DNA of 64,000 nt from an uncultured Bacteroidales bacterium (GCA_964618645.1 CAZUBW010000001.1:83236-147235); one strand, 5' to 3'. Shown: positions 4,464 to 57,557, counted from the first letter of the stretch. Program-made: numbers and translations. Notes: generated by a model not told the origin, from the letters alone.

Positions 4464-7277
4464 ATGGATCCACTTTCCTTTCTGGGCAACAGCGAAATCG
4501 ATGCCATTGACCAATTGTACCGGCAGTATCTCGAAGACCCCGATTCTGTTGATACAAGCTGGAAGACTTTCTTTGCCGGTATGGATTTTGCCGGCAGGTT
4601 CCGTTCTCCGGCCGGGGAAACCAGCGAATACATTGACAAGGAATTTAAAGTGTTAAACTTCATTGATGCTTACCGGAAAAGAGGTCACCTTTTTACCACC
4701 ACCAACCCGGTGCGCACACGCCGTAAGTACTACCCTACCCTGAACCTTGAAAATTATGGTCTGTCGGCCGGAGACCTCGACACTGTTTTTCAGGCCGGCA
4801 CTGAAATTGGCATTGGCAGCACCAGTCTCCGGAATATTCATGAACATCTGCAGCAAACTTATTGCCAATCGGTTGGCGCTGAGTATATGTTCATCAGGGC
4901 TCCGGAAAAGATCAGCTGGCTGAAAAAAAGAATAGAGGGCAGTCGTAACCGGACAGATTTTGATGCTGAGACCAGGAAAAACATCTTTCATCACCTGAAA
5001 AAGGCCGTCGGATTTGAAAACTTCATTCACCGCAAATTTGTTGGACAAAAAAGGTTTTCGCTCGAAGGAACAGAAGCACTGATACCTGCACTGCATTACC
5101 TGATTGAACGCGGCTCATCACTGGGAGTTGAGGAATTCTTCCTGGGAATGGCCCATCGCGGAAGACTAAATGTACTGGCCAATGTTGTTGAAAAGCCTTA
5201 CGAGAATATATTCCAGGAATTTGTTGCTGAAGAATACGAAGACCACATTGCCCTGGGCGATGTGAAATATCACCTGGGCTATTGTAATACCGTTACTTTA
5301 GCAAACGGAAAGCACATAAGCCTTAACCTTGTCCCCAATCCCTCGCACCTCGAAAGTTCCTCGCCGGTGATTGAGGGAGTAGCCCGTTCACGCATCGATC
5401 ACCATTATAAGGGTGACTTTTCGAAGGTGTTACCCATACTTATCCATGGCGATGCGGCCATTGCAGGGCAAGGCATTGTTTATGAGGTAGTTCAGATGGC
5501 AGAATTACCCGGCTATAAAACCGGGGGCAGTATTCATCTGGTTATCAACAACCAGGTTGGTTTCACCACCAATTATCTCGATGCCCGATCGAGCACTTAT
5601 TGTACCGACATTGCCAAGGTTATCAAAGCACCGGTTTTTCATGTGAACGGTGATGACACGGAAGCACTGGTGCATACAATTTTAATGGCAATGGACTACC
5701 GCTATACATTTGCTTCGGATGTGTTCATTGATATTTTATCGTACCGAAAATATGGCCACAACGAGGGGGACGAACCCAGGTACTCGCAGCCTACACTTTA
5801 CAAAGCCATTGCCAATCATCCCAACCCAAGGGACCTATATGCGCAGGAACTCATAAAACAAGGTGTATTAACGGCCACAGAAATAAAAGATCAGCAACGT
5901 GCATTTGATATTTTCCTGGAAGAGAAGCTGGCTTTATCTAAAAAGCTGGGCAAAGTATACATACAACGATTCATGCACGATACCTGGAAGCGGTTTAAAC
6001 ATGCCTCGCGTGAGGACTTTGACAAACATTATCCCGATGAATTCACACCGGATCTGCTGCTATATATTGGTGACAAAATAAACCAGATACCTCCGGGCGA
6101 TAAGTTCATCGACAAAACCGTTAAATTGGTTGAAGACCGCCGTAAAATGCTAGCTGAGGGTAAAATCGACTGGGCCCTGGGGGAATTGCTGGCATATGGT
6201 ACTTTGTTATACGAAGGCCATTCAGTGAGAATAAGCGGACAGGACTCCATTCGGGGCACTTTTGCCCACCGGCATGCGGCTCATGTGATTGAAGACACTG
6301 ACTTTAAGTATATCCCTCTCCGGCATGTTTCTGCCAACCAGGGGACCTTTGAAATATACAACTCGCCCTTAAACGAATACGGGGTACTCGGGTTCGAATA
6401 TGGTTATGCACTGGCACATCCCAACGGACTGACCATTTGGGAAGCCCAGTTTGGCGATTTTGCCAATGTTGCGCAGGTAGTTGTCGATCAGTACATCAGC
6501 TCGGCAGAAGAAAAATGGGGCCTTATGAACGGCCTGATATTGTACCTGCCTCACGGATTCGAAGGTCAGGGACCTGAACACTCCAGTGCACGCATTGAAA
6601 GATTCCTGTTGCTGGCAGCCCGCAATAATATGCAGATAGTAAATCCCACAACGCCTGCCAACCTTTTCCACCTGCTCAGGCAGAGCATAAAAAGGAATTT
6701 CAGGGTTCCGCTAATTGTTTTCACGCCCAAAAGTCTGCTGCGGCATCCTTTATGTACCTCCACGCTTGCTGAATTAACCACAGGTCATTTCAACGAAGTG
6801 ATTGATGACGCAGATACCGATGTTGACGAAGTGCGCAGGTTGGTGTTTTGTTCAGGTAAAATTTATTACGACCTGCTGGCACGAAAAATTGAATTTTCAG
6901 CACGCGATATCGCGCTGGTAAGGATTGAACAATTACATCCCTTTCCAAAAGCACGGATAGAACAAATCATCAAAAAATACAGGAATGTATTATTAACACT
7001 ATGGGTACAGGAAGAGCCAGGGAACATGGGCCCGTGGCGACATATACAGGACGAATTCAAGCAAGGTCAGATTGTACCTATATACAGGCAACCCAGTGGA
7101 AGCCCTGCCACCGGACTGCTTAAACTGCATCAGATAGGCCAGGAAGAAATAATTAATAAGGTATTCCGGAAGTGCGAGTGCGACCTCAAGCGGAAGTATT
7201 GTGGTCTTCAATGCTCCAATGGAAGCATGCGTCAGCAAATGCTAAAACAATACAGTTATTTCCCTGAAAAATCGTAA
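4464..7277 (+). CDS. sucA: 2-oxoglutarate dehydrogenase E1 component
   Basis: N-terminus [37 protein letters not shown] and TPP-enzyme core ([36 protein letters not shown]). Start placed at the ATG at 4464 rather than the TTG at 4452. Carries an unusual Cys-containing C-terminal tail (see findings). Confidence 0.92.
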
Positions 7278-14293: not shown

Positions 14294-15010
14294 TTAAAGA
14301 AAATTCCGGTTCAGAAATTCCTGAAACCTGTCCTTGTACTGATCACCGACAGGTATATATACTTTGCCGAAAATGATCCGGCTACGCTCAATGGTATCAA
14401 TTTTTTCGAGGTTGACGATAAAGGACCGGTGAACCCGCATGAATTTCGCGTCCGGTAATTTACCCTCAAGTTGTTTCAGCGAAGTCAGTGATAAAATTGG
14501 TTTGGGATCATTCCGTGTGTACACTTTAACATAGTCTTTCAATCCTTCGATATAGAGAATATCGTTAAAATTTATGCGCCGGATCTTGTATTCCGATTTC
14601 AGGAATAAAAACTCGTTGTTAGCTTCAACTTGTGTTGTTTCGTGCTTATTTTCCAGTTGTATCAGCCGCAATGCCTTTTGCGTAGCTGTAAAAAACTCCT
14701 CGTAGCTAAAAGGTTTCAGCAGGTAATCCACTACTTCAAGCCTGAAACCTTCCAGGGCATATTTTTCATAGGCGGTGGTAAAAACAACTTTCGGGCCTTT
14801 TTTCATGGCACGTGTAAATTCAATGCCGGTAAGATCCGGCATTTGTATATCAATAAATATCAAATCCACTGCATTCCCGGCCATAAATTCAACCGCATCA
14901 AGTGGATTATCAAACTTCCCGACAAGATTCAGACCGGGCGTTTTTTCGATGTACCCTGCCACCAGTTGAAGCGCCAGCGGCTCATCGTCAATGGCTATTG
15001 TATTGATCAT
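14294..15010 (-). CDS. LytR/AlgR-family response regulator (REC + LytTR DNA-binding domain)
   Basis: REC motifs (IAIDDE, DLIFIDIQMPDLTG, LLKP) and a C-terminal LytTR domain (FMRVHRSFIVNL). Overlaps the upstream kinase gene by 23 nt. Confidence 0.88.
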   Translation of the reverse strand: MINTIAIDDEPLALQLVAGYIEKTPGLNLVGKFDNPLDAVEFMAGNAVDLIFIDIQMPDLTGIEFTRAMKKGPKVVFTTAYEKYALEGFRLEVVDYLLKPFSYEEFFTATQKALRLIQLENKHETTQVEANNEFLFLKSEYKIRRINFNDILYIEGLKDYVKVYTRNDPKPILSLTSLKQLEGKLPDAKFMRVHRSFIVNLEKIDTIERSRIIFGKVYIPVGDQYKDRFQEFLNRNFL

Positions 15011-16100
15011 CGGATGGGTTATTTGTCAGCAAAATTTGTATAACAACCTGATATGCCGATTCAGTTTTTTCAATTGCGAAGGTATGCTGTCCGGGAAATA
15101 ACAGCTTCAGCCTTTTCTGCAAATTTTCCAGTCCGATTCCGGAATTTCCGTTTGATTTGGCCTCACTGCCAGGGAACAGGCTGTTTACACAACTGAAGGT
15201 AAGCATTTTTGATGACACTTCCATGGCAACCTCAATAAAAGATTTTTCGCGGTAACTGACACCATGTTTAAAAGCATTTTCAATAACTGAGATAAAGAGT
15301 AACGGGGGAATACTAATGTTGGTATAATCTGCCGGAAAAGAAACGTTGAGTTTCACTTTATCGGTCAACCTAAGACGCATCAGATCGATATAATTATTCA
15401 TAAAGTCAATTTCGTCCGATAATTTGGTTTGGCCTCTTTCGGATTCATAAAGCAGGTAACGCATCATTTTCGAAAGCTTCAGTACGGCATCTTTCGAGTC
15501 GTCGGTATTGATACTGATAAGCGAGTAAATGTTATTCAGTGTGTTAAAAAAGAAATGCGGACTGATCTGGTTTTTCAGAAAGGCCAGTTCGGAACTCAGT
15601 TTTTCTTTTTCGAGCTCTTTTTGTCGTTTTTCGATGTCGGAATGGCGTTCGATAACCCTCAATCCCAATGCCAAAATGGTAAATGCCACTGCATTAAAGG
15701 TGAAATTGTAAATATGACCAAGACCAAAGGGTAACCTGATTGCTCTTCTCCGCTCCACAGGGGGAGGTGGTAGTTCTCTTCGTTCAGCCGACTCCCTTCT
15801 GAACCTGTCGCGCTGACCTTCGTCAGGCCCTTCATCAAAAATAACCTGACTAATCCCAACACTTGCGAAAAAAAGTGCAACCACCAGCAAAAACGCATAA
15901 AGGTAGTAGCTCAGTTTCCGGCCCTTCATAAAATAGCGGGGAATCAGAAGCAGGTAATTGCCGTAAAACAACAGGAAATTAATCACCATATTAACAAAAA
16001 CAGCAACGAGGAATTCCCGGGGTATATCCCACCTTAACATTCCGTACAATGGAAAGCCGAGCAAAATTGCCCAGGCTGCGATGTGCAGAAATACCTGCAT
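14988..16100 (-). CDS. LytS/YehU-type sensor histidine kinase (His_kinase PF06580-like + GHKL ATPase)
   Basis: N-terminal TM helices, a charged Pro/Arg/Glu linker, the H-box LKNQISPHFFFNTLNNI, and a C-terminal ATPase with GIGLENL. Start uncertain, either 16124 or the internal ATG at 16100. Confidence 0.8.
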   Translation of the reverse strand: MQVFLHIAAWAILLGFPLYGMLRWDIPREFLVAVFVNMVINFLLFYGNYLLLIPRYFMKGRKLSYYLYAFLLVVALFFASVGISQVIFDEGPDEGQRDRFRRESAERRELPPPPVERRRAIRLPFGLGHIYNFTFNAVAFTILALGLRVIERHSDIEKRQKELEKEKLSSELAFLKNQISPHFFFNTLNNIYSLISINTDDSKDAVLKLSKMMRYLLYESERGQTKLSDEIDFMNNYIDLMRLRLTDKVKLNVSFPADYTNISIPPLLFISVIENAFKHGVSYREKSFIEVAMEVSSKMLTFSCVNSLFPGSEAKSNGNSGIGLENLQKRLKLLFPGQHTFAIEKTESAYQVVIQILLTNNPSDDQYNSH

Positions 16101-16157
16101 TCCCTTTCCCCTGGTTTTCCACATAGCTGTTTTTGTTTTAACCTGTTTATCTGTTAA

Positions 16158-16326
16158 TTAGAGCTTGTCAATAAAGTTAGAAAAATGTATAATTAGCCAT
16201 GTGTCTGTTCAGAGAGTTCCATTTGCAAGGCTTGCGCAGTCCGAAAATGCGGAGTTTACTATTCGTAAATGAGCAATTTTCGGACAAGCGTAACGCGGCA
16301 AATGGGACTTTATGGACAGACACTAA
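16158..16326 (-). repeat. stop-codon-abutting structured repeat, long form, copy 1 (123-nt imperfect hairpin at 16201-16323 plus a conserved ~30-nt distal box)
   Basis: Near-identical copy at 56983-57143. Internal helices are GTGTCTGT/ACAGACAC, CCATTTGC/GCAAATGG and TCCGAAAAT/ATTTTCGGA. It begins 3 nt after the TAA of the ABC permease gene. Confidence 0.85.
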
Positions 16327-17547
16327 TTATTCGTAGCGCAATGCCTCTATGGGATTGAGGTTAGCTGCCTTACGGGCAGGGTACCAACCAAAGAACACCC
16401 CAATGACAAAACAAACGATAAAGGCCAGTATAACAGCTTTGGATTGTACGTAAGCTTCACTGTCCATAAGCGAACTGGCTCCTTTGGCTATCAGATATCC
16501 CAATATTATTCCCAAAACACCTCCAAGTATACTCAAAATGATCGATTCCACAAGAAATTGTTTAAGAATATCCTGACCGCGTCCTCCAATGGACATACGC
16601 AGGCCTATTTCCCTGGTACGTTCAGTTACCGATACAAACATTATATTCATGATACCTATACCACCAACCAATAATGAAATGCCGGCAATAGCTCCCAGCA
16701 GGTAGGTCATGATATCAGTAATAGAGGTCATGGTAGCCATTAATTCCGACTGCGACATAATGCGAAAATCATTCTCATCTGTTTCTTTCAGTTTATGTGT
16801 ACGTCGCAGGATTTCCTCTATTTCGGTAATGGCTGCAGCTGATTTCTCCTCGGTAACAGCTGAGGCGTATATACCATTGATATAATCGATGGCAGCAAGG
16901 CGTCGCTGAACGGTTGTATAAGGTGCAACAATAAGATCGTCCTGATCCTGCCCCATCCCACTTTCACCCTTTTCTTCAAGCACGCCGATGACCTGAAAGG
17001 GAATGTTTTTAATGCGGATAGAAAGACCTACCGGATCAGCGTCATCACCAAACAGGTTCTCAACAACGGTCTGACCAACCAGGCAAACCTTGGCCATACT
17101 TTTAATTTCCTGTGTGGTAAATAACCTGCCGTTTGCTATTTTGAGCTTCCTGATATCCATGTATTCTTCACTGGCACCGTAAATAGTGGTTTGCGTATTC
17201 TGGTTGCCATAAATAACCTGACCGCTGGCACGCACTTCGGGCGATACAGCAGCTATATTGGAAGCTTCGTTTCGAATGGCTATAACATCATTCATTTTCA
17301 TTGCCTGGGAAGCGGAACTCCCCAGACTTACTCCTCCACGGCGCATGAAATTTGGCATTACCATAATCATGTTGGTACCCATGCTGGACATTTCCTCGCG
17401 CATGCTACGTTTTGAACCTTCGCCCAAAGCAAGCATGGCAATCACCGAAGCCACGCCAATAATGATACCCAGCATGGTTAATATGGCCCTAAGCCGGTTT
17501 CTCACAAGGGCCCTGACGGCTATCCTTAATAAATTGGCAAAATTCAT
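16327..17547 (-). CDS. ABC transporter permease, MacB/FtsX family
   Basis: 406 aa with an N-terminal TM, a large periplasmic MacB_PCD-like domain and a C-terminal FtsX 3-TM bundle. Follows the ATPase gene. Confidence 0.88.
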   Translation of the reverse strand: MNFANLLRIAVRALVRNRLRAILTMLGIIIGVASVIAMLALGEGSKRSMREEMSSMGTNMIMVMPNFMRRGGVSLGSSASQAMKMNDVIAIRNEASNIAAVSPEVRASGQVIYGNQNTQTTIYGASEEYMDIRKLKIANGRLFTTQEIKSMAKVCLVGQTVVENLFGDDADPVGLSIRIKNIPFQVIGVLEEKGESGMGQDQDDLIVAPYTTVQRRLAAIDYINGIYASAVTEEKSAAAITEIEEILRRTHKLKETDENDFRIMSQSELMATMTSITDIMTYLLGAIAGISLLVGGIGIMNIMFVSVTERTREIGLRMSIGGRGQDILKQFLVESIILSILGGVLGIILGYLIAKGASSLMDSEAYVQSKAVILAFIVCFVIGVFFGWYPARKAANLNPIEALRYE

Positions 17548-19716: not shown

Positions 19717-21072
19717 TTATAAGGTTAAAGGAATGCCCATGTAAAAATCAAGGATTTTATAGCTGAATATAAGGTTGTATTTCGACTGCAGCCATTGACT
19801 TTCTGCTACAATCAGGTTTGTTTTTGAAACCTGGTAATCCACCGAGTTGATAATTCCCTGGTTAAATTTTTCATCAGACAGGGCAGACGACTCTTTTATG
19901 GCGGTATAATTCTCGAGGTTTGCCTCATATTCCATTTGTGCCGAAAGTACGTCCTGACAAGCCTGTTCAATACTTTTCCGCAACTGATTTCGGGTTTCCA
20001 GCTCACTCAGCTCAGCCTGCTGGTAATTGAGTTGGGCCAGCGCCACACTGGTTTTTGCCTGTTTTCGCTGATAAATTGGAATGGAAAGAGAAAGGCCTGC
20101 AGCGGGCGACAACGCATGATCGAGTTGTTTGAAGTAACTATCTTCTGATCCGTTATCCGAGAAGCTGGCGCCTGTTCCTACGCTGGCACTGGCAGAAAGA
20201 CTGGGATAGAAGGCTGCCCTGGCAATTTTTTCATCCAGCAGGGCTATTTCTTTACTGACAGCTGCACTTTTCACTTGTGGTTTAATAGCCAGGGCAGTGT
20301 CATACACTGACTGTACAACAGGTAATCGCTGCTGGTTCAATGTTTCATCGAGATTGGGCTTGGCAAGTTCGAAACTTGCGCTTACCGGCAATTCCATAAG
20401 CTGCATAAGGTTTACCTTGGCAATGGCCAGCTGACTGATAGCATTTGCCAGGTTCAGCTTTTGAGTGGCCAGTTGTGATTTTACCTGAAGAAAATCTGCT
20501 TGCGAAATAACCTGCAGATTCATGCGTTCTTCAGCCAGGTTAACCTGTTGTGTTGTTGATTCGATCTGCTTTTCGGAATTCTTTACCTGCTCTTCGGCAT
20601 ACAATACCTGTAAAAATGCATTAAGAATGCTCAGGCTTATCGATTCGCGGGTATTTTCGAGATTATACCTTCCGGTTTCTATATCAAGTTCCGATTGCTT
20701 GATCTGGTTATTCAACCGCATCCCGTTATACAGGGTAACATTGGCGTTTACCCCATAGCTGGTGCTATTGCCGGCATCGAATCCACTCCCATATACCATT
20801 TCGCCAGTACCGGCATCCAGGGTCCCGGGTCTGCTCCATTTGAAATTCTGGTTAACCGAGGCATTCACCGAAGGAAGCCGCTGTGCCTTTACTTGTCCGG
20901 CCTGGTATTCAAGCGAAAGATTGGACAACCCGGCCTTCCTTACCGTTATATTCTGCTCAAGTGCATAGTTTATACAGGCTTCAAGCGTCCAGGGTTTTCC
21001 ATCCTGGGCAGCAATACCCGTACCCATAAAAAACAACCCTGTTCCAACCCATAAAACCAGTCTCATCCGCAT
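19717..21072 (-). CDS. TolC-family outer membrane efflux protein
   Basis: Signal peptide starting at MRMRLVLWVGTGLFFMGTGIAAQ, followed by the two-repeat OEP architecture. I prefer the ATG at 21072 to the ORF-track start at 21189. Confidence 0.85.
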   Translation of the reverse strand: MRMRLVLWVGTGLFFMGTGIAAQDGKPWTLEACINYALEQNITVRKAGLSNLSLEYQAGQVKAQRLPSVNASVNQNFKWSRPGTLDAGTGEMVYGSGFDAGNSTSYGVNANVTLYNGMRLNNQIKQSELDIETGRYNLENTRESISLSILNAFLQVLYAEEQVKNSEKQIESTTQQVNLAEERMNLQVISQADFLQVKSQLATQKLNLANAISQLAIAKVNLMQLMELPVSASFELAKPNLDETLNQQRLPVVQSVYDTALAIKPQVKSAAVSKEIALLDEKIARAAFYPSLSASASVGTGASFSDNGSEDSYFKQLDHALSPAAGLSLSIPIYQRKQAKTSVALAQLNYQQAELSELETRNQLRKSIEQACQDVLSAQMEYEANLENYTAIKESSALSDEKFNQGIINSVDYQVSKTNLIVAESQWLQSKYNLIFSYKILDFYMGIPLTL

Positions 21073-21336
21073 CGTAAGGATCCTGTATATCCAAATTCCG
21101 GAATCACATAAAAATGAAAAGCCGGCATGCATTAATTCATGCCTGTTTTTGTTTTTTATCAAAAATGCTCGTCTCATAACATTATTCAATTTTGGTATAA
21201 AAGTATGCGGACCATTTTTGACGACCTAACATAATAGAAGAATACCCCTTTTTCATAGACTAACGGGCATCTTTCAGCTATCACCGGACAACCATCCTAA
21301 ATGCTGTTAACAGGAATCAGCTGTTGGCCATTAGAT

Positions 21337-21427
21337 ATTAGCTGTGAGCTATGAGCTATTAGCTGTGAGCTATTAGCTGTGAGCTTTGAGCTTTGAGCTT
21401 TGAGCTTTGAGCTTTGAGCTTTGAGCC
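21337..21427. repeat. 13 tandem heptads with invariant (G)AGCT core (attagct/gtgagct/atgagct units, then 5x ttgagct + ttgagcc)
   Basis: Read directly. AGCT recurs at strict 7-bp phasing across 91 bp. The array is flanked by GCCATTAGATA / GCCAATAGATA direct repeats and the GCCATTAG...CTAATGGC inverted pair. Confidence 0.9.
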
Positions 21428-30920: not shown

Positions 30921-31039
30921 CCCTGACAGGGTTTTAAACCCTGTCAGGGGTCTGATGGGGTTTTAAACCCTGTCAGGGGTCTGATGGGGTTTTAAACCCT
31001 GTCAGGGGTCTGATGGGGTTTTAAACCCTGTCAGGGGTC
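30921..31039. repeat. 29-bp tandem repeat (~4 copies), each unit carrying the palindrome CCCTGTCAGGG; one inverted copy at the left end
   Basis: CCCTGTCAGGGG occurs at 30939, 30968, 30997 and 31026 (exact 29-bp period). CCCTGACAGGG at 30921 forms a perfect hairpin with the first unit. Confidence 0.9.
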
Positions 31040-55995: not shown

Positions 55996-56910
55996 TTGGA
56001 TTGGTCAAGCTATTCATCCGGATATAAAGCATTTCTCAAAATAGAGAAATCGTTATCAGAAAACTCGGTCATGGCCTATTTAAGCGACCTGGAGAAACTA
56101 AAGTCGTATTTCGACCAGGAAGCCATTGAAATCAAACCCGAAGACATTAATCCGCAACAACTTAATGATTTCCTGATTTGGGCCGCAGAGGCCGGCATAA
56201 GCCCCCGAAGCCAGGCAAGGCTCGTTTCCGGTATTAAATCGTTTTTCAGGTACCTGTTAATGGAAGAAAAGATATCATCAGATCCTGCCGAACTATTGGA
56301 AACTCCAAAACCAGGCCGGAAATTACCGGTAGTGCTAAGTCTTGATGAAATCGACCGTATCATAGCAGCCATTGACTTAAGTCAGCACGAAGGGCACCGT
56401 AACAAGGCAATTATCGAAACACTGTACAGTTGCGGGCTGAGGGTGTCAGAGCTGACTGACCTGCGGTTAACCAACCTGCACTTTGCTGAAGGATTTATCA
56501 AGGTTACAGGTAAGGGAAGCAAAGAAAGGCTGGTTCCGATAAGCAATAAGGCCGTATACGAAATAGAAATCTACCTTTCGCAGTACAGGAGCCAATTAAA
56601 ACCTGTTAAGGGAGCCGAGAACATTGTGTTCCTGAATCGGCGGGGCAATAAACTCAGCCGCATCATGATCTTTAACATCATAAAAGACCTGGCATTAAAA
56701 GCCGCGATCCGTAAACCCATTAGCCCTCATACTTTCCGTCATTCATTTGCCACACATCTCGTCGAAGGAGGAGCAGATTTGCGGGCAGTTCAGGAAATGC
56801 TGGGCCACGAGTCGATTCTGACTACAGAAATATACACCCATTTAAACCGTGAATACCTGAGAGACGCTATATTGCGATTTCATCCGCGTTCCATCAGCAA
56901 AAAGCACTAA
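55996..56910 (+). CDS. xerD: site-specific tyrosine recombinase XerD
   Basis: 304 aa with an N-terminal SAM-like core-binding domain (FLKIEKSLSENSVMAYLSDL) and catalytic R...HTFRHSFATHL...LGH...Y residues. TTG start in the ORF track. Confidence 0.85.
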   Translation: MDWSSYSSGYKAFLKIEKSLSENSVMAYLSDLEKLKSYFDQEAIEIKPEDINPQQLNDFLIWAAEAGISPRSQARLVSGIKSFFRYLLMEEKISSDPAELLETPKPGRKLPVVLSLDEIDRIIAAIDLSQHEGHRNKAIIETLYSCGLRVSELTDLRLTNLHFAEGFIKVTGKGSKERLVPISNKAVYEIEIYLSQYRSQLKPVKGAENIVFLNRRGNKLSRIMIFNIIKDLALKAAIRKPISPHTFRHSFATHLVEGGADLRAVQEMLGHESILTTEIYTHLNREYLRDAILRFHPRSISKKH

Positions 56911-56916
56911 AAGCAA

Positions 56917-56951
56917 AATCCGGTCACTGCATGAATTCTGTTGACCGGATT
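56917..56951 (-). terminator. rho-independent terminator closing the 3'UTR of the 137-aa TonB-C gene (may also stop convergent xerD)
   Basis: 10-bp stem AATCCGGTCA / TGACCGGATT. On the minus strand it is followed by TTTGCTTTT. Confidence 0.6.
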
Positions 56952-56982
56952 GTTGCCCTGAAAAGGATTACAGTTTCACTAT

Positions 56983-57143
56983 TTAGAGCTTGTCAATATA
57001 GTAAAATGCTTAACCGGACATTTGTCTGTTCAGAGAGTTCCATTTGCAAGGCTTGCGCAGTCCGAAAATGCGGAGTTTACTATTCGTAAATGAGCAATTT
57101 TCGGACAAGCGTAACGCAGCAAATGGGACTTTATGAACAGACC
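56983..57143 (-). repeat. stop-codon-abutting structured repeat, long form, copy 2
   Basis: 57021-57142 differs from 16201-16323 at about 4 positions, and the distal box TTAGAGCTTGTCAATA is shared. Starts directly after the TAG (57144-57146) of the 137-aa gene. Confidence 0.85.
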
Positions 57144-57557
57144 CTATTCAAGGTCAAACCTGACTTGTACCAGCATGGGGCACCGCCTTGGTTCACCGTT
57201 ATGGGTGGCCGGTTTAAGTTTAACGCTTCTGAGCGCCTTACAAACCTGGTCGGCACAATTACATCCGATATCTTCAATAATAACAACGGATGAAACACTG
57301 CCATCCTTTTCAACCATACACATTACCTTTACAATTCCTTCCAGTCCGTTTTCAACGGCATCCTGGGGATAGGTAATAAGCTCGCCGAGTGTGGATGTAA
57401 GATCCAAACCATTCTCAGCCATGGGGTACACATCGTAATTCTTCAACAGATCAGCTTTCGGGTCTTTTTCTGCGTTGGTTTGAGCAGCAGCAAACGACAG
57501 CGACAAGACAAGCAAAACTGTCGAAAGAGCGGAACATTTTAAAATTAAAGTTTTCAT
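57144..57557 (-). CDS. short secreted TonB C-terminal-domain protein
   Basis: Signal peptide MKTLILKCSALSTVLLVLSLSFAAAQ. TonB_C pattern YPQDAVENGLEGIVKVMCMVEKDGSVSSVVI...KLKPATHNGEP. No Pro-rich spacer. Confidence 0.75.
   Translation of the reverse strand: MKTLILKCSALSTVLLVLSLSFAAAQTNAEKDPKADLLKNYDVYPMAENGLDLTSTLGELITYPQDAVENGLEGIVKVMCMVEKDGSVSSVVIIEDIGCNCADQVCKALRSVKLKPATHNGEPRRCPMLVQVRFDLE

Follow-up and report, generated by a model that had tools for sequence, protein, structure and literature searches.

Introduction

The ERIC elements of enterobacteria, also known as IRU, are a MITE family of 127-bp imperfect palindromes, and an orientation-dependent effect on the upstream mRNA has been reported for them (PMC2229807). 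The Correia or NEMIS elements of Neisseria are MITEs of 100-155 bp with terminal inverted repeats, and every frame of them contains stop codons; neighbouring genes are transcribed together with them, and their hairpin RNAs are proposed substrates of RNase III (PMC2229807). REPINs are doublets of REP sequences that do not move by themselves and depend on a RAYT transposase, supplied in trans from a single-copy gene (PMC3116915). Within the Bacteroidia, the class to which the host of the present element also belongs, MITEs such as BrickBuilt have been described in Porphyromonas gingivalis (PMC4596501). No description of the present family, or of MITEs in Marinilabiliales, was found in the searchable literature, which is absence of evidence only.

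The window is the whole 64,000-nucleotide stretch of DNA that was analysed, from an uncultured Bacteroidales bacterium (GCA_964618645.1 CAZUBW010000001.1:83236-147235), and it carries two copies of a short palindromic element (Table 1). This element is very probably a non-coding MITE of marine Bacteroidales that is mobilised in trans by an ISNCY-family DDE transposase. The family is new, but as selfish DNA it is of a common and familiar sort. The exception is that, in this subfamily, one particular end is located exactly at the stop codon of a neighbouring gene far more often than expected by chance.

Table 1. Coordinates of the two MITE copies in the window, their parts and the adjoining genes
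Feature	Position	Strand	Remarks
MITE copy 1	16161-16323	+	163 bp, between direct TAATTA repeats
Left target-site duplication TAATTA, copy 1	16155-16160	.	6 bp, identical to 16324-16329
Left terminal inverted repeat GAGCTTGTCAATAAAGT, copy 1	16161-16177	+	inverted match to 16307-16323; kept in all full copies
Left subterminal spacer, copy 1	16178-16200	+	most variable part of the family; contains TTGTCA-17-TATAAT match
123-nt imperfect palindrome, copy 1	16201-16323	+	folds; helix kept in the family alignment
Internal third copy of the terminal repeat, copy 1	16201-16217		pairs with right terminal repeat
Apical loop of the hairpin, copy 1	16260-16264		
Right terminal inverted repeat, copy 1 (reverse complement GTGTCTGTCCATAAAGT)	16307-16323	-	
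Right target-site duplication TAATTA, copy 1	16324-16329	.	16327-16329 is the permease TAA stop
MacB_PCD/FtsX permease gene	16327-17547	-	TAA stop inside right TAATTA of copy 1
LytS-type histidine kinase gene (His_kinase)	14988-16124		follows copy 1
LytTR response regulator gene	14294-15010		follows copy 1
MITE copy 2	56986-57144	+	159 bp, 4-nt deletion in left spacer
Left target duplication TATTTA, copy 2	56980-56985	.	agrees with 57145-57150 at 5/6 positions
Right target duplication TATTCA, copy 2	57145-57150	.	57145-57146 is the TA of the TAG stop
TonB_C gene	57144-57557	-	G of its TAG stop is the last base of copy 2
Xer-like tyrosine recombinase gene	55996-56910	+	other neighbour of copy 2

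Structure of the element

A preliminary description, made from the sequence, had placed a structured element of about 165 nt at the site of copy 1. A structured unit is indeed located there, but its boundaries have been corrected to 16161-16323, a 163-bp unit flanked by TAATTA. Alignment of the copies determined that the terminal inverted repeats are 17 nt long (GWGTCTGTCNATAAAGT), with GAGTCTGTCAATAAAGT at the left end and ACTTTATGGACAGACAC at the right end, that they pair in all full copies, and that the unit length is constant at 163 bp. A third copy of the repeat, GTGTCTGTTCAGAGAGT, lies in direct orientation 40 nt inside the left end, where it pairs with the repeat at the right end and so makes up the foot of the hairpin; owing to this extra internal copy, most of the element is a 123-nt palindrome. 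The palindrome and its helices are present and fold as had been described. As RNA, 16201-16323 forms one long hairpin with a folding energy of -74.4 kcal/mol (z = -8.9) on the plus strand, and the minus strand folds at -53 kcal/mol (z = -5.7). A conserved box had also been noted next to the palindrome; it consists of the left terminal inverted repeat and subterminal sequence. The element has no coding capacity, with no ORF of 60 aa or more inside the 163 bp, and its ends carry stop codons in all frames. The apex of the hairpin, GAAAATGCGGAGTTTAC, resembles the inverted repeat of Tn1546. This likeness was rejected as a coincidence, as the motif is apical and not terminal and the duplication is 6 bp and not 5.

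Gene context of the two copies

On the minus strand, copy 1 is preceded by genes for a TolC-like OEP, a membrane-fusion protein (MFP), an ABC ATPase (ABC_tran) and the MacB_PCD/FtsX permease, and it is followed by the His_kinase and LytTR regulator genes, in agreement with the neighbours first named for it. The foot of the hairpin is located 3 nt from the stop codon (TAA, 16327-16329, minus strand) of the gene for the MacB-type permease, as had been noted. The copy inserted into a TAATTA that included this stop, and the insertion lengthened the spacer between the permease stop and the start of the LytS-type kinase gene from 33 nt to the present 202 nt. Judging from its length, the 33-nt spacer before insertion is compatible with a single operon of efflux and sensor genes. 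Co-transcription of these genes, and a role of the hairpin between them in processing or stability of the mRNA, had been suggested at the outset; this is a reasonable hypothesis and a tentative one.

Copy 2 lies 40.8 kb from copy 1 in the same orientation. It is 93% identical to copy 1 over 148 nt, and the preliminary count of about 4 differences for a copy 41 kb away is exact for the hairpin, which differs at 4 positions. The left ~40 nt differ more between the two copies than the hairpin does, and this part includes the 4-nt deletion. An inverted repeat, AATCCGGTCA...TGACCGGATT, is found at 56911-56975 between the Xer-like gene and copy 2. It ends in a T-rich stretch on either strand and has the appearance of a terminator that acts in both directions, for the two converging genes. 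Copy 2 inserted at the TAG stop of the TonB-like gene, between this stop and the terminator-like hairpin downstream. It is probably part of the 3' untranslated region of the TonB-like gene, with the terminator-like hairpin beyond the element. No terminator-like site, that is, a G+C-rich hairpin followed by a T-run, was found over either copy on either strand, and the lack of a terminator T-run after copy 1 that had been pointed out holds for both strands. The element may be carried on the 3' end of the mRNA of the upstream gene.

Two other repeats were observed in the window. Four head-to-tail copies of a 29-nt unit, CTGAYRGGGTTTTAAACCCTGTCAGGGGT, are located without spacers at 30921-31038 in a non-coding stretch; each unit is a small palindrome (CCCTGACAGGG...CCCTGTCAGGG), and the array is unrelated to the MITE. 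A degenerate 7-nt tandem repeat of about 100 nt (AGCTGTG / AGCTTTG / AGCTATT) occupies 21316-21420, close to the start codon (at 21189) of the minus-strand gene for the TolC-like protein (19717-21189) and just outside its 5' end.

Copies, hosts and sister families

Further copies were searched for with a 21-mer of the hairpin apex in one genome per species. The two copies of the preliminary description are joined by 69 further loci in about 10 Marinilabiliales genomes. The carriers are eight Bacteroidales metagenome bins together with Anaerophaga thermohalophila and Marinilabilia salmonicolor, and no match to the apex 21-mer was found in viral contigs. The total is 71 copies in 10 genomes plus the window, many of them dispersed and beside unrelated genes. 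The lack of relation among neighbours that had been remarked on for the window extends to the family, as there are only 2 orthologous pairs among 29 abutting genes. Contig ends hold many copies. The Logan contigs with the permease gene of the window end 25 nt past the gene, as expected from a repeat that breaks assemblies.

A metagenome search with the right end alone returned at least 120 stretches. Among the matches listed there are many MITE subfamilies of 115-194 bp that have the right end in common, and their interiors are unrelated in sequence and hairpin-forming in every case. Tandems occur both head-to-tail and head-to-head, with one duplication in common. Dimers of about 310 nt consist of a sister MITE of about 141 nt and the 163-nt MITE with one TAAATA between them; they were found at L137:2281-2590, L099, L122 and L182, and also at L039:658-1020, L048:1639-2000 and L049:2792-3100. 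The junction of the dimer is the same at different loci, and the dimer apparently transposes as one unit via its outer ends. Mini-derivatives of 40-55 nt, which feature barely more than the two terminal repeats (e.g. TAGTGTCTGTCAATAAAGTTGGTAGAATGTTTATCCAGACACTAATTA), are located at L017:354-400 and L047:40-110 and point to abortive events or to deletion of the interior. A further short repeat that forms a hairpin (…CCACAAGTCACAGACTTGCGG…) and has no sequence relation to the MITE lies in or next to MITE copies in the burst genome, the bin with the most copies and with tandem arrays (L037:3600-3800; L047:~1480-1527). In L006, gapA (GAPDH) is situated between a truncated copy upstream (4762-4894) and a full copy downstream (6047-6207). 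The latter has its left end at the TAG stop of gapA, one of the rare left-end abutments. L006 had been considered as a candidate full-length element; this was rejected, as the locus is a truncated copy, gapA and a second copy.

Target-site duplication

The units are flanked by 6-nt direct repeats with the target consensus TAWWTA. The flank pairs agree within copies, for example TACTTA/TACTTA, TATTTA/TATTTA, TAAATA/TAAATA and AATCAG/AATCAG. A register test determined that only the 6-nt register gives agreement of the flanks, at 84% of positions, and that other registers give 23-47%. Additionally, the middle dinucleotide is identical in 25/31 copies, compared with 10.3 in shuffles and a maximum of 18 in 5000 shuffles. 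The flanking 6-mers thus co-vary between copies, which identifies them as a true target-site duplication. The flank logos are symmetric, Y-TAATTA-R, and the orientation of the element is therefore not dictated by the local target.

Insertion is also recorded in a filled and empty pair. L119 is filled (TAATTA-element-TAATTA), and the orthologous L072 has a single TAATTA with flanks that are 91% identical; the element of this pair is from a sister subfamily whose ends are the same. The L127/L161 pair would also fit an empty site, but its junction is too diverged. L018/L040 had been considered as another empty-site pair and is not interpretable. The reconstructed empty site of copy 1 had no match in JGI metagenome contigs. 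Mobility of a MITE or REP-like kind had been proposed for the two copies in the window. The MITE half of this proposal stands on the inverted repeats, the co-varying 6-bp duplication, the ~70 copies, the filled and empty pair and the cognate IS described below, and the REP half was dropped.

The ISNCY partner transposon

No transposase was found in the window or in the 69 genome loci, and these loci contain no multi-copy segments longer than 350 bp other than orthologous loci. Among the metagenome matches listed, seven right ends belong to an element of 1,681 bp, for example L149:120-1800. This IS is present in L149, L124, L178 and L184, all of them metagenome contigs. It begins with GTGTCTGTCTTTAAACTC at the left end and finishes with ...GGACATTATGGACAGACAC at the right end; the right end of L149:120-1800 matches that of the MITE at 21/22 nt, and this copy is flanked by a TAATTA/TAATTA duplication. 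The IS features one ORF of 450 aa, which scores 352.4 bits against NCBIfam NF033593, 'ISNCY family transposase' (cut-off 325), and 34.8 bits against Pfam DDE_Tnp_1 (cut-off 23). Apart from the ends of about 20 nt, the MITE and the IS are unrelated in sequence.

The 1,681-bp IS or a close relative is the likely source of the MITE transposase, because the right end of about 20 nt, the target and the length of the duplication are in common. Mobilisation of the MITE would take place in trans, with the DDE transposase of the IS acting on the same right end and producing the same 6-bp TAWWTA duplication. The IS probably belongs to the ISDol1 group of ISNCY, whose members in ISfinder are 1.6-1.9 kb long with 6-7-bp duplications, values which 1,681 bp and 6 bp fit. 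The flanks of the IS copies in L124 and L184 differ from each other, except that both copies have GACTAAATA at the left and TAATTC at the right, which form an imperfect duplication; a different repeated sequence may have been the site of both insertions.

Association with stop codons

An end was scored as abutting a stop codon when an open frame of at least 100 codons read towards it and stopped at the junction. The right end is at a stop in 29/58 copies, or 27/55 without orthologous duplicates, and the left end in 2/43. Unoccupied non-coding TAWWTA sites in the same DNA served as the control (n = 318); 24 of them (7.5%) overlap a stop in these registers, which is 3.8% per orientation. The excess of right ends over 3.8% has p = 5e-24, and the 27:2 split between orientations has p = 1.6e-6. 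The abutment on stop codons that copy 1 first suggested is therefore statistically strong and specific for one orientation (right end 27/55 versus 3.8% expected; left end 2/43).

The abutting copies form two classes. In the TAA class, with 10 copies including copy 1 of the window, the stop is the first three bases of the duplication. In the TAG class, with 17 copies including copy 2, the stop is made up of the last two bases of the duplication and the first G of the element. Reconstruction of the latter sites before insertion places a TAA or TAG there already, so that the native stop is the target and is not made by the element. In all abutting copies the TA of the stop is one of the two TA steps of the target, and only registers -3 and +1 occur. 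At about eleven copies a co-directional gene starts 13-54 nt past the left end, as at copy 1, which places the element often within tight operon junctions. In L068 (right flank of the copy at 5827-5988) and in L021/L058 the copies are not at a stop, and the right end directly follows a terminator-like hairpin (AAAAACCTCATT...AATGAGGTTTTCT; GCCCGGCACTTTTGCCGGGC); these right ends again face the end of a transcription unit.

The association depends on the genome. In the burst genome the right end is at a stop in 6/24 copies and the left end in 2/21, whereas all other genomes together give 23/34 and 0/19, a non-burst sample that is small (34 copies in 10 genomes). Burst and other genomes differ in stop abutment with a Fisher p of 0.003. 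An independent metagenome sample of all subfamilies gives 24/121 (20%) for right ends and 6/53 (11%) for left ends among the matches listed, and right ends of the full-length IS are at a stop in 0/7 among the same matches.

Conservation, age and RNA structure

The left 39 nt diverge from the family consensus by 16%, whereas the hairpin diverges by 8% at unpaired and 3.5% at paired positions. Abutting copies have fewer perfect duplications than other copies (5/24 versus 9/24) and their left 39 nt are more decayed (p = 0.037), but the hairpins of the two groups are equally intact. The copies at stops look older than the others. Three insertions are orthologous across species, and the hairpins of these pairs are 96.7, 95.9 and 92.7% identical, or 91-96% when the 21-mer by which they were ascertained is left out; the adjacent coding DNA is 83-92% identical and the left part of the element 77-80%. 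One of these pairs, L021/L058, features decayed termini and a compensatory change from T-A to C-G, and with such termini it is no longer able to move. The old orthologous copies and the end bias together hint at orientation-dependent retention with a constraint on the hairpin, possibly through an RNA effect. The same conservation of the hairpin could result from gene conversion among dozens of near-identical copies.

The covariation term determined with RNAalifold for 18 diverse copies is weak (-0.8), with a double change in 6/38 pairs, and our own count gives 8 distinct compensatory events, most of them in divergent species. The plus strand, which is antisense to the abutting gene, folds better than the minus strand in every subfamily. 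The difference in G-U pairs is mostly located at 2-3 positions of the foot, where the left and internal repeats differ from the right repeat; outside the terminal-repeat foot there are 45 G-U and 33 A-C, and counted per copy, stem changes that preserve the plus or the minus strand number 19 and 14 events. Assignment of a functional strand from the asymmetry of G-U and A-C was rejected on the basis of the location of the excess in the foot and of these two counts. On the plus strand of copy 1, TTGTCA-17-TATAAT at 16165-16193 matches the sigma-70 consensus at 11/12 positions. This match is absent from copy 2, which has a 4-nt deletion and different hexamers, and from the family consensus, and no promoter is conserved in the family. 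No described RNA family matches the element; the Rfam search gave 0 matches at the gathering score in the whole window. A permissive search returned a single hit, of 19 bits, to a plant miRNA precursor whose gathering score is 195; the hit is due to the long hairpin.

Origin of the stop codon association

Different explanations bear on the element as a whole and on its position at stop codons. An imperfect palindrome of about 123 nt just downstream of genes, together with a tyrosine recombinase gene 70 nt from copy 2, would be expected of a REP or REPIN-type repeat moved by a RAYT (Y1) transposase or of an integron attC-like site. Neither mechanism, however, yields terminal inverted repeats and a co-varying 6-bp target duplication; the element contains no GTTRRRY or RYYYAAC core sites; its copies are dispersed, alone or in element-element tandems, beside housekeeping genes (gapA, for instance) and not in cassette arrays; and a DDE partner was found. 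The 6-bp duplication and the filled and empty site pair refute both the REPIN and the attC reading, and the chance that either applies is vanishingly small. The better fold of the plus strand in copy 1 (-74 versus -53 kcal/mol) and in every subfamily, together with the 11/12 sigma-70 match of copy 1, would suit a small RNA gene with its own promoter at 16165-16193, whose product would be a hairpin RNA of 123 nt, complementary to the permease transcript at its 3' end. Housekeeping promoters of Bacteroidota use TTTG / TAnnTTTG and not a consensus of the TTGTCA-TATAAT type. The match is thus not of the kind used by these bacteria, it is private to copy 1 and missing in copy 2 and the family consensus, the G-U excess is mostly in the foot (45 versus 33 outside), and there is neither a terminator nor an Rfam match. 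Such a gene is very improbable. The remaining question is why a MITE of this kind is found at stops with its right end. A purely selfish model by itself leaves unexplained the orientation bias of 23/34 versus 0/19 outside the burst genome, the 93-97% identity of orthologous hairpins compared with 77-92% in the flanks, and the decay of the left end beside an intact hairpin.

Two readings of the bias itself have to be weighed. In one, which is doubtful, the association is purely mechanistic: the preference for TAWWTA makes stops (TAA/TAG) the commonest harmless site, and an asymmetric transpososome, with two repeats on the left and one on the right, senses the GC-richer coding side or the direction of transcription. 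The use of the TA of the stop by every abutting copy in registers -3 and +1 only, the presence of both ends above 3.8% in the metagenome (20% and 11% among the matches listed) and the different structure of the left and right ends all agree with it. It is opposed by flank logos without asymmetry beyond Y-TAATTA-R, by the 0/7 full-length IS ends at a stop among the matches listed, and by a bias that differs strongly between genomes with the same element (Fisher p = 0.003). The other reading is a tentative one, possible and somewhat improbable, and holds that an element of MITE origin is now kept by the host in many of its copies for a role as RNA, in 3' untranslated regions or between cistrons, other placements and orientations having been lost. 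A hairpin at the stop would shield the upstream mRNA from 3' exonucleases, or would escape an RNase cleavage that the opposite orientation would cause; this part is equally tentative. The right-end excess of 23/34 against 0/19 for left ends outside the burst genome goes with a symmetric target logo, and the bias is much weaker in the burst genome (6/24 versus 2/21) and among the metagenome matches listed (24/121 versus 6/53), as expected if retention and not insertion makes the bias. Additionally, the abutting copies look older with equally intact hairpins, and orthologous hairpins are 92.7-96.7% identical compared with 84-92% for coding DNA, with a compensatory change in the immobile pair. 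Against retention as an RNA element, covariation is weak (RNAalifold -0.8; 19 versus 14 events), recent activity, or gene conversion between the near-identical copies (about 30-70), may account for the conservation, the better-folding plus strand is antisense to the abutting gene with an asymmetry mostly in the terminal-repeat foot, and the non-burst sample is small (34 copies in 10 genomes). For the mobile MITE itself, we infer that the right-end excess would combine a TA-rich target supplied by stops with orientation-dependent retention by selection, the likely basis of which is that the two orientations place hairpins of different quality right behind the terminating ribosome. A more far-reaching proposal is unlikely, though not negligible: a MITE subfamily would have been domesticated genome-wide in Marinilabiliales as a stop-adjacent RNA module, with only the orientation that gives a mismatched (A-C) mRNA hairpin retained, tuning 3'-end stability or decoupling cistrons in operons such as macAB-tolC / lytS-lytTR.

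Significance

The MITE explains breaks of short-read assemblies at gene ends in these Bacteroidales, and annotators gain a defined repeat family with a consensus, ends, a 6-bp TAWWTA duplication and an ISNCY partner. Nearly all that is known of the lineages that carry it comes from metagenome bins; the cultivable carriers are Anaerophaga thermohalophila, with a copy at L045:4297-4456, and Marinilabilia salmonicolor, with one at L063:1663-1823. The family is raised above a routine repeat by its end-specific and genome-dependent stop association, which involves about half of the copies and two thirds of those outside the burst genome. If retention and not insertion is the cause, these copies would be a natural experiment in bacterial gene expression on a hairpin directly behind a terminating ribosome, and would parallel what has been proposed for ERIC elements in Yersinia.

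Comparison with known systems

The ERIC / IRU elements are like the MITE of the window in their similar size and long imperfect hairpin, in their location in transcribed intergenic regions near gene ends, and in their terminal inverted repeats and TA-containing target. They differ from it in that the sequences are unrelated and the hosts belong to a different phylum. ERIC duplicates TA and not 6 bp, and it is found in both orientations, whereas the subfamily of the window is strongly biased. To our knowledge ERIC has no partner transposase, and for the MITE of the window an ISNCY partner was found. The ISNCY-family IS at L149:120-1800 passes NF033593, whereas the MITE of the window is without a transposase.

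REPINs are also short hairpin repeats that are extragenic and often right after genes (PMC3116915). They lack terminal inverted repeats of the kind on which a DDE enzyme acts, and their insertion leaves no target duplication, whereas the MITE of the window has a 6-bp duplication. The MITEs of P. gingivalis, such as BrickBuilt, are probably a different family. The target duplication of the Correia / NEMIS elements is TA; these elements contain IHF sites and promoters directed outwards, and the MITE of the window was found to have neither. No fixed-end association with stop codons is reported for Correia / NEMIS. ERIC/IRU, Correia/NEMIS and the MITE of the window are alike in being short palindromic transposon derivatives that end up in transcripts beside genes.
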